From: Escherichia coli | Lineage (GTDB): Bacteria > Pseudomonadota > Gammaproteobacteria > Enterobacterales > Enterobacteriaceae | Direction: 5' to 3' (one strand) | DNA: 64,000 bases | NCBI RefSeq assembly: GCF_041886205.1 | Contig: NZ_CP169029.1 | Shown here: piece after piece, positions 28,499-32,713 of the stretch | How positions within the stretch are numbered: the first letter of the stretch is position 1 | Layout: the number at the start of each line of letters is the position of its first letter | Translations under genes and position numbers: made by a program | The notes under the pieces: generated by a model | Database searches by the model: none | What the model was told of the DNA's origin: nothing | Seen by the model: only the letters and a program-made list of their open reading frames with translations

Positions 28499-28992
28499 TA
28501 CGCCCCCACGTAATTCCCTGACAGATACCACTCATCACTCGATACAGCGCGCTTGCTGCTTTTCCGTAAACACTGCTCACGACGCGCCAGAAAATTGTTT
28601 CGTTCTGGCTGGGAGTGGCTTTCACGGAATGCCGCCATCCACACCGTTGCAGCACGACGGTATAAGCCCCTGGACTCCAGTTCTTCAGCCTGGCGGGTCA
28701 GGCACAAAATCTCCCGCGGGTCGTTAGTGCCGACATAGAAATTGCGCACAGGTCTGGTTTCACGAACTGGTTGCGGTTCTGCCTCCTGCGCTCTCTCAGT
28801 CAGGCGCGGGAAATGTCTGCGTGTATCCCCTTCACAACGGTGAGCCACACGACCACTCTGACGTAACTTGCTTGCTGACTGCAGAACGCGCTGCCGTGAG
28901 TAACCTGCAAAAGCATCCGCAATGTCTCTGGAAGTACACCCCGGATGGGCTTCAATGTATTTCTGAACTTCATTCAAAAGACTCATGATCAC
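28498..28992 (-). CDS. Winged-helix + PerC-like C-terminal domain protein (possible transcription regulator)
   Basis: 164 aa; C-terminal AEELESRGLYRRAATVWMAAF resembles PerC-family motif as recalled. Confidence 0.35.
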   Translation of the reverse strand: MIMSLLNEVQKYIEAHPGCTSRDIADAFAGYSRQRVLQSASKLRQSGRVAHRCEGDTRRHFPRLTERAQEAEPQPVRETRPVRNFYVGTNDPREILCLTRQAEELESRGLYRRAATVWMAAFRESHSQPERNNFLARREQCLRKSSKRAVSSDEWYLSGNYVGA

Positions 28993-29990
28993 CCCCTGAA
29001 TCCTGCTGGGATCTGGCTGTAGTCCACGTTGTCGTAACTGGCTTTGAAGTACGGGTCTTCGCGTTTTTCTGTGTACGTGCTGACGGACGGCGATAAGCGC
29101 AGGGAAAGCTCATCCCATTTTTCCCGCAGCTTCGACGGGCTGAGCACGTTACGGCACCAGAACGGATCGCGGCTGACGCGGCTGTACATCTCGCAGATTT
29201 GTTTGTGAGTACGACCATCCTGCACACACATCAGGCGAATTTCGTTTGCCCAGGCTGTCCAGTTCGGTTCTTTGGGACGAACCACCTCGCCGTCACATTC
29301 GGCAGCCTGCTCGTACAGGGCGATGATTTTTTTCCAGAGCCACTGTGCGCAGGTCAAATCATCCTGCGTCCCCCACTGGCGCTTTTTAGGGCTGAATACA
29401 ACCGCATCAGGATGGCGAGTTAAAAAATCCTGTTCAGCCGTCTGCGTGTCCGGTTGCGAAGAGTCCGGACGAGAAGGTTTTTTATCTGACGGATCATGTT
29501 TTGATTTTACTGACGGATCCCCGCCAGATTCTGACGGGTGAAAACCCGCTTTTTTGCCAGATTTCGACGCATCAAATTTTGACGGGTCAGATTTTGATGC
29601 GTCAGATTTTGACGGGTCAGATTTTGATGCGTCAGATTTTGACGGGTCAGATTTTGATGCGTCAGATTTTGACGGGTCAGAATCTGACAGTTGAGAAAAT
29701 GCCGCTGCCTGAAGCTTCGCAACGTTAAGCTGATAAACATTCGACGCATTGCGGTTACCCTGGCGACGCGCCTTACGCGTTAACCAGCCTTCTGCTTCCA
29801 GCCGTGCGATAGCCGTTCTGACGGTACTCATCCCCGCGCCAATCTGGCGTGCAATGGTTTCAATTGATGGCCAACACACACCTTCGTCATTACTGAAATC
29901 AGCCAGGCGGGCCATAATTGCCACGCTGGATAGCTTCATGCCTGACGCAGCGCAACCATCCCATACATAGCCGGTTAATTTAGTGCTCAT
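28989..29990 (-). CDS. Replication initiator-like protein with internal iterons
   Basis: 333 aa; N-terminal HTH-like segment; central (DASKSDPSKS)n repeat encoded by tandem DNA repeats. Confidence 0.55.
   Translation of the reverse strand: MSTKLTGYVWDGCAASGMKLSSVAIMARLADFSNDEGVCWPSIETIARQIGAGMSTVRTAIARLEAEGWLTRKARRQGNRNASNVYQLNVAKLQAAAFSQLSDSDPSKSDASKSDPSKSDASKSDPSKSDASKSDPSKFDASKSGKKAGFHPSESGGDPSVKSKHDPSDKKPSRPDSSQPDTQTAEQDFLTRHPDAVVFSPKKRQWGTQDDLTCAQWLWKKIIALYEQAAECDGEVVRPKEPNWTAWANEIRLMCVQDGRTHKQICEMYSRVSRDPFWCRNVLSPSKLREKWDELSLRLSPSVSTYTEKREDPYFKASYDNVDYSQIPAGFRG
29521..29690. repeat. Tandem direct repeats (30-bp unit x3 perfect plus degenerate flanking copies): candidate replication origin iterons
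   Basis: gacgggtcagattttgatgcgtcagatttt repeated at 29581-29670, partial copies either side. Confidence 0.65.
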
Positions 29991-30338: not shown

Positions 30339-30919
30339 GCGTTAGTTTCTCCACAACCAGAAGCAATCGACGCCACGACGCCCGGAGCTGCACACTCGCG
30401 GGCGTTACTCTTTTCCGGCGCACAAAAAACACGAAATAACAGTGTTAAATGCTCCTGCCACTTCGCCATTACTTGGTAGCTGTTCTCTTCGATTTGCTCA
30501 CGCTCAGCCTGGTCAATAACTCCATCAGCAGTTGCCTTGCGTAAGTACTGGGAATGCTTGCCAATCCATTCTATTGACTCCATCAGCCGCTGATTAATGT
30601 CACCATTGTCAATGTCATCAATGACCACCAGCGGCACAAACACCCCATTACTACGACGGGCTATTGCATCTGTTACATGCCTGGTACCACTGGCATCCTG
30701 TAAAACCATGGCCCACTCAAGTGGAAAAATTTGATCCCCACCGCTACGCAGTCTGTTATGCAATTGATCTTTTGCTGGGGTGATATCATCAGATTTATAC
30801 AAACCAAGAATTTCTGCTGCTTCCTCATAGCCATGAGGTAAATCAGCAATCGTTCTTCGTATTGCTGCCACCAGCCATGCTGGTTGTTTATCAACTTTCC
30901 ATTCAGGTTCTTTACCCAC
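30335..30919 (-). CDS. Early regulatory protein in CII position (YdaT-like, uncertain)
   Basis: 194 aa directly downstream of Cro-like gene. Confidence 0.35.
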
Positions 30920-30946
30920 GGTTAATTCCTCATTTCTGTGGTGTTT

Positions 30947-31144
30947 TTATGCCGCAGCACTGTTAGTCTTTTGATATAAAGACACGTCAACTTTCAGTTT
31001 CCCGTTAGTAATTTTTTCTAACTGGTACGCTCGGCCTTCAGGAATAATCTCAGGCCACTCTGAAACAGACGGATGCTTAATACCTAGGGCTTCGGCGGTT
31101 TTACAAACTCCGCCGAAATAATTAATCACGTCGGATTTCCGCAT
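30947..31144 (-). CDS. Cro-like HTH regulator (YdaS-like)
   Basis: 65 aa; divergent from CI-like repressor across operator region. Confidence 0.65.
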   Translation of the reverse strand: MRKSDVINYFGGVCKTAEALGIKHPSVSEWPEIIPEGRAYQLEKITNGKLKVDVSLYQKTNSAAA

Positions 31145-31239
31145 TTCTGTCTCCCGTTAAATTACGTTAAGCAGAAATGTAGGATATCCAACATGCAAAT
31201 GTCAAGAATCCTACATGGGCATGTGGTAGGATTGCCTAC
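31145..31239. promoter_or_regulatory. OR-like region: 18-bp palindromic operator (31177-31194) inside PR (-35 TTGACA at 31200-31205, -10 TACATT at 31176-31181 on minus strand) plus further half-sites
   Basis: atgtaggatatccaacat operator repeated three times around the repressor gene; promoter hexamers 18 nt apart. Confidence 0.6.
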
Positions 31240-31893
31240 ATGATGAACATGAGTGATCGTATTCGCCAAAGGCGAAAAGAACTGAACCTGACACAACAAG
31301 CACTGGCTGATTTGACTGGTGTGAACCGTGTCACGGTTACTGGATGGGAAAAGGACGACTACCAACCAAATGGAGCCAACCTTCAAGCCCTAGCCAACGC
31401 ACTTAAATGCGATCCTCTGTGGCTTGTTAGCGGAAAAGGCTCGCCTGAACCAAAGATAAATCTAAAACCTGAAATATTCGCAGTTAAAAAAGTCCCCCTA
31501 ATCTCGTGGGTTCAGGCGGGTTCATGGACAATGACGGAGCCTGGTGTCAGGAAAGAAGATGCTGAAGAGTGGGTTTATACTACCGCCCTTGTATCAGAAA
31601 TGGCATTTGCACTACGGGTCCGTGGTGATTCAATGACCAATCCCCTCGGCTCACCATCGATACCAGAAGGTTCTATCGTTATCGTAGAGCCAGATATTAT
31701 TGATACAGAGTGTATTAACGGAAAAATCGTTGTTGCCCATATCAATGGTGGGCAAGAAGCGACACTCAAAAAATTTGTTGAGGACTGGCCGAACAGGTAT
31801 CTCGTCCCACTAAATCCTAACTATAAAACTATTGAATGCGGTGAGAACTGCAGAATAGTTGGTCTTGTCAAACAAGTAATAATGGATTTTTGA
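31240..31893 (+). CDS. CI-like repressor (HTH + LexA-like S24 autopeptidase domain)
   Basis: 217 aa; N-terminal HTH (RRKELNLTQQALADLTGVNRVTVTGWE); C-terminal GDSM serine and downstream Lys typical of S24. Confidence 0.85.
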   Translation: MMNMSDRIRQRRKELNLTQQALADLTGVNRVTVTGWEKDDYQPNGANLQALANALKCDPLWLVSGKGSPEPKINLKPEIFAVKKVPLISWVQAGSWTMTEPGVRKEDAEEWVYTTALVSEMAFALRVRGDSMTNPLGSPSIPEGSIVIVEPDIIDTECINGKIVVAHINGGQEATLKKFVEDWPNRYLVPLNPNYKTIECGENCRIVGLVKQVIMDF

Positions 31894-31955
31894 CACATCT
31901 TCCTCACTATCGCAAAACCGGGGTATCCCCGGTTTTTTTATGAGCCTATCTTTTT

Positions 31956-32009
31956 ATGTAGGATAACCAACATAAACTCTTGACACTCACATGTTGGATA
32001 TCCTACATT
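31956..32009 (+). promoter_or_regulatory. OL-like region: two 18-bp operators (31956-31973, 31991-32008) bracketing PL (-35 TTGACA 31980-31985, -10 TACATT 32004-32009)
   Basis: atgtaggataaccaacat and atgttggatatcctacat; same promoter-operator arrangement as OR. Confidence 0.6.
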
Positions 32010-32352
32010 TGTTTTTAGAGTTGTGGTGAATGCGCAGGCTGATGCGCGAAAGACATTGCAGCTATTGCGGAAAAGAGCTGTTCGGCGGGGCAATTAAACG
32101 CCCGTGAGAGTCTGAAATAACCGCAAGCCGGAGATCAGCACCGGTCACCACAACAGCCACTGCTTTGGCGGTACCAGTTTGTACACTTGCTTCCGGCTGG
32201 TACCGCTCTTTTTACAAAACAGAGAAGAGCATCACCGGACGACGGGCTCATAACCCAATCCATCCGGGCGGCTGCCACCGCAGGTGTTCTTCTCTGTTTT
32301 GTGGAGAAACCAACCGACCTTACAGGGTCGATATGATGAGGAGCAGCAAAAT

Positions 32353-32713
32353 GGCTAGCGAACGCAGTACTGATGTGCAGGCATTTATCGGGGAGCTGGA
32401 CGGCGGCGTATTTGAAACCAAAATCGGCGCTGTTCTCAGTGAAGTCGCTTCCGGTGTGATGAACACGAAAACCAAAGGTAAGGTCTCGCTCAACCTGGAA
32501 ATCGAACCGTTTGATGAGAACCGTGTGAAAATCAAACACAAACTCTCATATGTTCGCCCGACTAACCGCGGGAAAATTTCCGAAGAAGACACCACCGAAA
32601 CGCCGATGTATGTCAATCGCGGTGGTCGCCTGACTATTCTGCAGGAAGACCAGGGACAATTACTGACTCTTGCCGGTGAACCTGACGGAAAACTCCGCGC
32701 AGCAGGTCATTAA
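32353..32713 (+). CDS. Hypothetical early protein (YfdP-like size; start uncertain)
   Basis: ORF-track ORF 32165-32713; shortened to internal Met to give ~120 aa. Confidence 0.35.

Follow-up and report, generated by a model that had tools for sequence, protein, structure and literature searches.

The window analyzed here, 64 kb of Escherichia coli DNA, contains genes of an SfV-like phage (head, tail, lysis and Q), and it places side by side a cI repressor gene, a divergent cro of the P22_Cro family, a gene for the CII-like YmfL and an O-like replication gene. The cro-like gene (30947-31144, minus strand, 65 aa) is the first gene of the PR operon; its product matched Pfam P22_Cro (PF14549) with an E-value of 7.6e-22 and is named 'Cro/CI family transcriptional regulator' by RefSeq in near-identical genomes. 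The repressor gene (31240-31893, plus strand) encodes 217 aa with HTH_3 (E = 1.1e-15) and Peptidase_S24 (E = 3.7e-25) domains. The divergent genes are split by a 95-bp intergenic region that contains three candidate operator sites, and repeated dyads lie over both early promoters, PR and PL, which flank cI. This is the arrangement of a lambdoid CI/Cro switch.

When compared with solved structures, CI matched lambda CI (E = 7e-25) and the N-terminal domain of P22 C2 (E = 4e-14). Its C-terminal domain is homologous to the cleavage and oligomerization domain of lambda CI (E = 1e-22), and the protein was 44% identical to P22 C2 over 212 aligned residues, a homology that spans its whole length. Alignment to the lambda self-cleavage motifs located QAG (A93-G94), GDSM (S131) and the first K of LKKF (K177), and CI combines an HTH with a LexA/S24 domain that has the Ala-Gly site and the Ser/Lys dyad. 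The recognition helix, GVNRVTVTGWE, was invariant in relatives down to 60% CI identity.

The original prediction placed three copies of an 18-bp palindrome around the CI-like repressor gene, and both their coordinates and their sequences proved correct. With up to three mismatches allowed on both strands of the 64 kb, the dyad ATGTAGGATATCCAACAT was found at 31177-31194, 31956-31973 and 31991-32008 and nowhere else; the chance expectation for such an 18-mer was 0.06, and none of 100 shuffles reached the observed count. All three are real sites, but they are not the complete set: there are five operator sites, of which one (OR2) is putative. A position weight matrix built only from relatives returned these five as the top five 18-mers of the window. 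OR1 (31177-31194, ATGTAGGATATCCAACAT), a strong site inside the PR spacer and -10, and OL1 (31991-32008, ATGTTGGATATCCTACAT), the reverse complement of OR1 and inside the PL spacer and -10, were tied at the top with 30.8 bits. OL2 (31956-31973, ATGTAGGATAACCAACAT), upstream of the PL -35, scored 27.8 bits, and OR3 (31224-31241, TGGTAGGATTGCCTACAT), which overlaps the cI ATG at 31240 and holds the predicted PRM -10, ranked fourth with 23.2 bits. The putative OR2 (31199-31216, ATGTCAAGAATCCTACAT), whose distance is 22 bp to OR1 and 25 bp to OR3, was fifth and weak, with 6.8 bits overall against 6.0 bits for the next background site. Its right half is a perfect half-site (16.0 bits), and its left half is the PR -35. 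The full OR2 score is barely over background, and some relatives have only TCTTACCT, a degraded form of the half-site, so that in effect OR may consist of two sites. Neither an OL3 nor another additional site turned up within 400 bp of cI in a search that tolerated up to six mismatches.

Additional GTAGGA half-sites had been proposed as cooperative or PRM-proximal operators. That proposal is borne out: the hexamers at 31209-31214 (minus strand) and 31226-31231 (plus strand) are real, and they belong to the weak OR2 and to the strong OR3 over the cI start codon, respectively. By itself GTAGGA was no commoner in the window than chance predicts (15 copies against 14.9), and these two copies are significant because they are part of longer sites. 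The exact half-site ATGTAGGAT occurred four times in the 64 kb, always within the immunity region. The operator consensus is ATGT(A/T)GGAT.ATCC(A/T)ACAT, also written ATGTAGGATATCCTACAT, and its conservation, expressed as information, peaks at positions 3, 4, 6 and 7. We rejected the central GATATC, an EcoRV site, as a meaningful element, since the center varies in OL2 and among relatives.

A scan of 30800-32500 for sigma-70 promoters gave only two matches of 10/12, and these were the mirror-image TTGACA-18-TACATT promoters of the original prediction. PR (31176-31205, minus strand) consists of a -35 at 31205-31200, an 18-nt spacer and a -10 at 31181-31176; its start is predicted at about 31169, and a Shine-Dalgarno sequence, GGGAGA, precedes the cro ATG. 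PL (31980-32009, plus strand) has its -35 at 31980-31985 and, after the same spacer length, its -10 at 32004-32009, with a start predicted at about 32016. The two promoter-operator regions (31168-31207 and 31978-32017) form a 40-nt inverted repeat with 85% complementarity. One operator had been described as lying exactly between the hexamers of each promoter. OR1 and OL1 do lie in the spacer, where they occupy positions 6-18, but each also enters the -10 by 5 nt, covering TACAT of TACATT.

Upstream of cI, a promoter PRM is predicted at 31204-31232 (plus strand) by positional homology with the annotated P22 PRM; it would consist of a -35 AAGAAT (31204-31209), a 17-nt spacer and a -10 TAGGAT (31227-31232). 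The consensus scan of 30800-32500 did not pick it up. Its start would fall at about 31238-31240, which would leave the cI mRNA a leader of 0-2 nt. Downstream of cI, an intrinsic terminator (31918-31939, plus strand; CCGGGG-TAT-CCCCGG followed by T7) was identified from the sequence, a repeat finder and conservation. The terminator scan missed it, probably through the stem-extension rule of the scan. Relatives keep a GC hairpin and a T-run at this position with different stem sequences.

Among eleven relatives with repressors 60-100% identical to CI, the invariant intergenic blocks were OR1, the PR -35, OR3, the OL2 half-sites, the PL -35, and OL1 with its -10, and the overlap between operators and promoters was kept in all of them. 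OR1 was identical in 10 of 11, as was the PR -35 (TTGACC in mEp390), and OR3 was identical at 18/18 positions in 9 of 11, including mEp390. Both PL hexamers were invariant in every relative, the T that completes the PR -10 just beyond OR1 was conserved, and the start-to-start distance from OL2 to OL1 was 35 bp in 11/11. The flanks drifted, and the central 4 bp of OL2 were free to vary. At OR1 and OL1, conservation of the outer operator bases is confounded with that of the -10 hexamer. Homology to phages of other immunity types starts at 32017-32020, just past PL.

The module was present in 134 of 5426 complete E. coli genomes. At 99% or higher identity it also occurs in the phage records Lys8385Vzw and vB_EcoM-720R4 and in three Stx2c phages, and in SKA5 at 99.1% identity over 91% of the query; at that level of identity it would regulate Stx1- and Stx2c-converting phages. 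In Stx-converting phages, loss of the repressor is generally understood to precede toxin production. The switch would set both the phages that this lysogen excludes and the timing of prophage induction, and its operator word permits prophages to be sorted into immunity groups by sequence alone. In the literature searched, we found no published description of this immunity module and no binding, footprint or transcript data, and the operator words matched only unrelated primers. The Lys8385Vzw paper says nothing of the operators and even reports CI and Cro to be missing from the phage, and the titles and abstracts on mEp390 included no paper on its immunity region.

We conclude that an SfV-like lambdoid prophage very probably has its immunity switch, which decides between lysis and lysogeny, in this region; within the lambda CI/Cro family, the switch falls on the branch of P22 C2 and Cro. 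Occlusion of PR and PL by the repressor, as originally proposed, is supported by the gene content, the operator/promoter overlap, footprinting across relatives and the match to P22, from which we infer binding. Alternatively, the dyads might belong to a regulator other than the adjacent CI, such as Cro alone, the CII-like YmfL or a host factor, and a Cro of the P22_Cro family is expected on the same sites anyway. However, the sites co-occur with the CI clade and its invariant recognition helix where the surrounding sequence differs, and they share with the operators of the homologous P22 C2 both their layout and their form, being 18-bp dyads with a variable center of 4 bp. In addition, CII-type activators recognize direct repeats flanking the -35, whereas the sites here are dyads. 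We regard another regulator as very improbable.

A decayed switch with non-functional operators, left in a defective prophage, would be in keeping with the frequency of such prophages in E. coli and with K-12 CPS-53, which keeps yfdP-yfdR. Against decay, no damage is seen in cI, cro, either promoter or any strong operator, the sites are conserved under divergence, and the window has the head, tail, lysis and Q genes already noted. Moreover, deposited phage genomes carry the module at 99% or higher identity, and one of these phages, Lys8385Vzw, was induced from its host; a relic is a shade less probable still. The lowest probability goes to the proposal that the inverted repeats work not as protein-binding operators but as hairpins in DNA or RNA, be it as terminators, processing sites or recombination sites. 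It draws on the 40-nt inverted repeat of PR and PL and on OL2 and OL1, which make up an inverted repeat of 18 nt whose arms are 17 nt apart. In relatives, however, the asymmetric position 5 of OL2 is oriented as in OL1 (in L065, ATGTTGG...CCTACAT in both), and we rejected the OL2/OL1 hairpin as a functional structure because the relative orientation is not conserved. In addition, the transcripts are predicted to start downstream of the sites, and a separate conventional terminator is present at 31918-31939.

If the region is a CI/Cro switch, it would work as follows. In the lysogen, dimers of CI would bind the 18-bp dyads, with contacts, by analogy with P22, at positions 2-7 and 12-17 and none at the central 4 bp. 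On OR1 and OL1, CI would cover the spacer, reach 5 nt into the -10 and exclude RNA polymerase from PR, which would transcribe leftward into cro, the cII-like ymfL and the replication genes, and from PL, which would transcribe rightward into the yfdP-yfdQ-yfdR early-left operon. OL2 and the weak OR2 would serve as auxiliary sites, which CI would probably bind cooperatively by way of its lambda-like C-terminal domain. The predicted PRM -10 and start and the cI start codon lie under OR3, whose occupancy at high CI would give negative autoregulation, while the terminator would insulate PL from cI transcription. Upon DNA damage, RecA-stimulated self-cleavage at Ala93-Gly94 by the Ser131/Lys177 dyad would inactivate CI, and after its loss the P22_Cro-type Cro would bind the same sites and shut off PRM.

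Adjacent to the switch and not part of it, the PL leader contains a conserved three-helix RNA of about 105 nt (32206-32310, plus strand) upstream of yfdP. The leader folded with z = -5.3, and in an alignment of 21 sequences 95% of cells paired and compensatory changes occurred at 8 pairs. The covariation score was 0.181, compared with 0.097±0.007 for shuffles (0/500 reached it) and 0.03-0.06 for slid partners. A covariance model of this RNA gave 117 bits at the locus and identified a single copy, without a partner on the PR side. A terminator-like hairpin lies just upstream of the RNA. Rfam returned no match to the leader RNA and nothing in the region, either at gathering thresholds across the whole window or at permissive E-values in 31900-32450. 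The RNA resembles the put antiterminator RNAs of HK022 and HK639 in being a structured PL leader of lambdoid phages without a recognizable N gene (PMC9378689; PMC12315714). Nevertheless, we rejected an HK022/HK639-type put, because no similarity was found by BLAST (nothing better than E 0.1 against HK022), by eye or with the covariance model, which had no match in HK022 or HK639; put consists of two stem-loops of about 35 nt, about 70 nt in total, whereas the RNA here has three helices and a 21-bp closing stem. The element could represent a new class of RNA that acts in cis, in antitermination or another form of regulation, in lambdoid phages without N (SfV, SfII, SfIV, ST64B, LLS and Stx phages).

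The switch follows the same logic as that of lambda: cI and cro diverge, OR is tripartite, and beyond the end of cI comes OL/PL, which points the same way as cI. The lambda cI message made from PRM is leaderless, and the cI message here is predicted to be so too. The lambda operators, in contrast, are 17 bp and unrelated in sequence, the N-terminal domain of the CI described here is closer to that of P22 C2, and the rexAB genes found between cI and OL in lambda are absent. The geometry of OR2 and PRM also differs. In the lambda model, activation comes from a site centered at -42, whereas the predicted PRM puts OR2 over its -35, which makes positive autoregulation uncertain.

The original prediction suggested a comparison of the operators with those of other prophages, and we carried it out with mEp390 and P22. 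In mEp390 (NC_019721), all five sites are present in the same order, and OR3 and the recognition helix are identical to those here. Its CI is only 60% identical, its PR is TTGACC-18-TACTAT, its flanking modules are unrelated, and in several of its half-sites (GTAAGA) position 6 is an A, as in P22. Despite the divergence of the repressors, the operator word predicts that mEp390 and the prophage are homoimmune, and mEp390 is probably in the same immunity group.

P22 has a repressor of similar length and domain plan and a Cro of the same Pfam family; the homology of CI to C2, together with a Cro of the P22_Cro family, places the switch in the P22 C2/Cro subfamily. The P22 OR is arranged as OR1-5-OR2-7-OR3 followed directly by the ATG, and the arrangement here is OR1-4-OR2-7-OR3 with the ATG overlapped by 2 nt. 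The array geometry is correspondingly close: OR spacings are 22/25 bp here and 23/25 in P22, OL2 and OL1 are 35 bp apart in both, and in both the PL spacer contains OL1, which extends 5 nt into the -10. The P22 PRM (AGGAAT-17-TAAGAT) has the same positions relative to OR2 and OR3 as the PRM predicted here, its OR3 is equivalently placed, abutting the c2 ATG, and the 5' nucleotide of the P22 RM transcript is 4 nt before that ATG. P22 operators are contacted at 2-7 and 12-17, with the central 4 bp uncontacted (PMC4267663), and the conservation profile here, with its variable central columns, fits that description. Differences are found at PR: in P22 its spacer is occupied by OR2 and its -10 and start by OR1, whereas here the spacer contains OR1 and the -35 falls inside OR2. 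PR is thus shifted by about one operator relative to P22, which makes it a mirror copy of PL. In addition, OR2 is a single half-site here, OL3 was not found whereas P22 has OL1-3, and the yfdP operon lies downstream of PL without a gene 24/N-type antiterminator gene.

The operator word does not have P22 specificity. Compared with the P22 consensus ATTTAAGATATCTTAAAT (PMC5175364), the word here, ATGTAGGATATCCTACAT, differs only at positions 3/16 and 6/13, where G replaces T at position 3 and G replaces A at position 6, and 7 of the 9 half-site positions agree. In the recognition helix, NRVTVTG is found here and SNVAISQ in P22, and heteroimmunity with P22 is expected because of this difference. 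Since both the operator consensus and the recognition helix differ, the switch represents a different immunity type within the P22 C2/Cro subfamily, and the pair with C2 is a natural test case of how a few recognition-helix changes re-specify two operator positions. A bolder combination, in which a natural specificity swap of the P22 C2 scaffold goes together with the PL-leader RNA as a possible new class in N-less lambdoid phages, appears rather unlikely as a whole; on the swap reading, PR would have been rebuilt as a mirror copy of PL and OR2 thereby reduced to a half-site. The switch is otherwise an ordinary prophage on/off switch of the lambda-like type, built on the P22 plan with a slightly different operator word, and its immunity specificity is a further member of a well-known kind that leaves the textbook picture unaltered.

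For the region around the repressor gene cI, the evidence best supports a bistable CI/Cro switch of standard design. Its biology is ordinary, that of an immunity region of the P22 type whose specificity is new. The 217-aa product of cI (31240-31893, +) carries HTH_3 and Peptidase_S24 domains. Among solved structures, CI matched lambda CI (E = 7e-25) and the N-terminal domain of P22 C2 (E = 4e-14); its identity to C2 is 44% across 212 aligned residues, and alignment places the lambda self-cleavage motifs at Ala93-Gly94, Ser131 and Lys177. An open reading frame with a domain match (31144-30947, −) encodes a P22_Cro-family protein, and a CII-like YmfL protein and an O-like replication protein are encoded farther left on the same strand. 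The latter (28989-29990, −) contains approximately four tandem copies of the peptide DASKSDPSKS (29500-29720 of the window), and the underlying DNA array may represent intragenic origin repeats of the iteron type. Sequence inspection and a repeat search located a GC hairpin with T7 3′ of cI (31918-31939), beyond which the rightward early promoter PL points into the yfdP-yfdQ-yfdR operon. The prophage combines lambdoid early genes with SfV-like myovirus structural genes and abuts the host genes zur, lexA and plsB from ~38.5 kb. Within this host part, Rfam naRNA4 (REP-derived nucleoid-associated RNA) was detected at 55089-55159 (−; 63.6 bits).

Exactly as the original prediction described, the 18-bp dyad ATGTAGGATATCCAACAT was found at OR1 (31177-31194), as a one-mismatch copy at OL2 (31956-31973) and as its reverse complement at OL1 (31991-32008). 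When up to three mismatches were allowed, the 64-kb window contained no other match (0.06 expected by chance), and none of 100 shuffles reached the observed copy number. A consensus promoter scan of 30800-32500 yielded only two 10/12 matches, PL (31980-32009, +) and the leftward promoter to cro, PR (31205-31176, −), each consisting of TTGACA-18 nt-TACATT. Together, the two promoter/operator blocks make a 40-nt inverted repeat with 85% complementarity. In PR and PL alike, the operator covers spacer positions 6-18 and runs five bases into the -10 element, so that, although embedded in the promoter as predicted, it does not lie exactly between the -35 and -10 elements. The proposal that the repressor occludes both promoters is supported by this overlap, the gene families, the footprint in relatives and the likeness to P22.

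Three operators had been predicted and all three were retained, but the total increased because a dyad scan at relaxed stringency added OR2 (ATGTCAAGAATCCTACAT, 31199-31216) and OR3 (TGGTAGGATTGCCTACAT, 31224-31241). The final two bases of OR3 are the AT of the cI ATG. OR2 has a perfect half-site on the right, its left half being complementary to the PR -35. When a half-site weight matrix was built from relatives alone (phage and viral-contig loci, window excluded), these five sites outscored every other 18-mer in the window, at 30.8, 30.8, 27.8, 23.2 and 6.8 bits; the top background 18-mer scored 6.0 bits, compared with 6.8 for the weakest site. All four copies of the exact half-site ATGTAGGAT in the 64 kb were inside the operator region. 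Because its weight-matrix score is near background and the half-site is restricted to this region, OR2 is a credible half-site 22 bp from OR1 and a weak candidate for a full operator.

The footprint set comprised 80 viral-contig loci and phage mEp390, condensed to eleven non-redundant sequences with CI identities of 100, 92, 83-84, 80, 76 and 60%. The recognition helix GVNRVTVTGWE was invariant (11/11). Between the genes, the blocks that stayed invariant were OR1 and OR3, the -35 elements of PR and PL, OL1 together with its -10, and the outer portions of OL2. Changes occurred in the leader of cro, the spacer separating OR2 from OR3, the stem sequence of the terminator and the four base pairs at the centre of OL2. 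OL2 and OL1 start 35 bp apart in all relatives, and half-site positions 3, 4, 6 and 7 carried the most information per position. Operators contacted by a protein are expected to leave such a pattern of conservation, whereas drift or an RNA hairpin is not. OL2 and OL1 share one polarity in several relatives, so that the OL2/OL1 inverted repeat is not conserved. Although the mEp390 CI is just 60% identical, the mEp390 fragment has the same five-site layout (positions 1437-1502 and 2208-2260), and neither its OR3 nor its recognition helix differs. We predict that mEp390 and the prophage in the window are homoimmune.

In the proposed switch, CI on OR1 and OL1 would occlude PR and PL, with OL2 and OR2 serving as auxiliary sites that are probably filled cooperatively. 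OR3, spanning the predicted maintenance promoter PRM and the cI start, would mediate autoregulation, and the terminator 3′ of cI would shield PL from cI transcription. Induction would occur by RecA-stimulated self-cleavage of CI, and Cro would re-use the operators. Activation of PRM by CI at OR2 is uncertain because OR2 overlaps the -35 of the inferred PRM.

The immunity module is present at 99% identity or more in Stx1 phage Lys8385Vzw, three Stx2c phages and vB_EcoM-720R4; SKA5 matched at 99.1% identity across 91% of the query, and 134 of 5426 complete E. coli genomes carry the full module. Phages of other immunity types, including mEp460, PhiR63_1, Stx2a_1447 and related Stx2a phages, match the window only from 32017-32020, ~10 nt past the PL -10. 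Because this homology starts just past PL, PL is, judged by sequence comparison, the right edge of the exchangeable cassette, and the recombination joint would be close to where PL transcription starts. The initial portion of the PL leader (32020-32155) shares 98.5% identity with a segment of RCS47 (115 kb), vB_EcoM-813R1 (100 kb) and IME207; since its distribution differs from that of the remaining leader, the leader itself is mosaic.

A full-text literature search for the operator words matched only unrelated primers, and titles and abstracts of the mEp390 literature revealed no apparent study of its immunity region. Lys8385Vzw was reported to be without CI, Cro and CII in a paper that contains no analysis of operators (PMC7946995). 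This phage carries the module at 99.7% identity, annotated as 'LexA family transcriptional repressor'. Because the module is its cI/cro/cII-like region, the reported absence is apparently an artefact of annotation. Systems of this kind are textbook knowledge; neither the particular operator word nor the immunity group appears to have been described in the literature searched.

Separate from the immunity switch, the 335-nt PL leader (32016-32350) folds far better than shuffles (z = -5.3). Its ~105-nt three-helix core (32206-32310, +), upstream of yfdP, is kept upstream of yfdP-type early-left operons despite unrelated repressors. Carriers include SfV, ST64B, 118970_sal3, Eeyore, LLS, Klebsiella Kp4866-6 and Stx phages, besides at least 120 viral contigs, and many are lambdoid phages without an annotated N gene (SfV, ST64B, LLS, Stx phages). 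An alignment of 21 diverse sequences supports the three helices, which are a closing stem of 21 bp, an internal hairpin that hardly varies (CGACGGGCUCAUAACCCAAUCCAYCCGG) and another hairpin whose length differs between sequences; 95% of alignment cells pair, with compensatory changes at eight pairs. Covariation was 0.181, compared with 0.097 ± 0.007 in shuffled alignments (0/500) and 0.03-0.06 with slid partners. The core had no Rfam match, and a covariance model found a single copy in the window and none in HK022, HK639, P22 or the mEp390 fragment. It has no sequence similarity to the put antiterminator RNAs of HK022/HK639. LLS was described as lacking N and as one that 'may have' a put-like mechanism, none being identified (2025; PMC12315714). 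We consider this RNA a candidate cis-regulatory or antitermination RNA. Directly 5′ of it (32168-32213, +), TCTTTTT follows a hairpin with a perfect 10-bp stem (GCGGTACCAG ... CTGGTACCGC) and a 19-nt loop; in relatives the T-run is nearly invariant and the hairpin sequence changes. The element, placed between PL and yfdP, resembles a terminator.

The annotated operators, promoters and PRM transcript 5′ end of the P22 RefSeq record were compared in the c2 orientation. P22 has OR1-5 bp-OR2-7 bp-OR3 followed by the ATG, and the window has OR1-4-OR2-7-OR3 with a 2-nt ATG overlap; OL2 and OL1 start 35 bp apart in both. OL1 likewise occupies the PL spacer and five -10 bases (TAAAT of TAAATT in P22, TACAT of TACATT in the window). 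P22 PRM is AGGAAT-17-TAAGAT, at OR2 positions 6-11 and OR3 positions 4-9, where the window has AAGAAT-17-TAGGAT. The P22 PRM transcript begins 4 nt ahead of the c2 ATG; by analogy, the cI transcript would start at ~31238-31240 and be leaderless or have a 2-nt leader. There are two real differences. The PR spacer holds OR1 in the window but OR2 in P22, so that PR is a mirror copy of PL and its -35 destroys one half of OR2; and no OL3 was found in the dyad search around cI. The operator consensus is ATTTAAGATATCTTAAAT in P22 (PMC5175364) and ATGTAGGATATCCTACAT in the window, with differences limited to positions 3/16 and 6/13. In P22, the repressor makes contact at positions 2-7 and 12-17 but not at the four base pairs in the middle (PMC4267663), in agreement with the variable operator columns in relatives. 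CI keeps Val33, the C2 residue packed against the TTAA methyls (PMC5175364), and its neighbours differ (C2 to CI: S31N, N32R, A34T, I35V, S36T, Q37G); these changes plausibly account for the new operator specificity.
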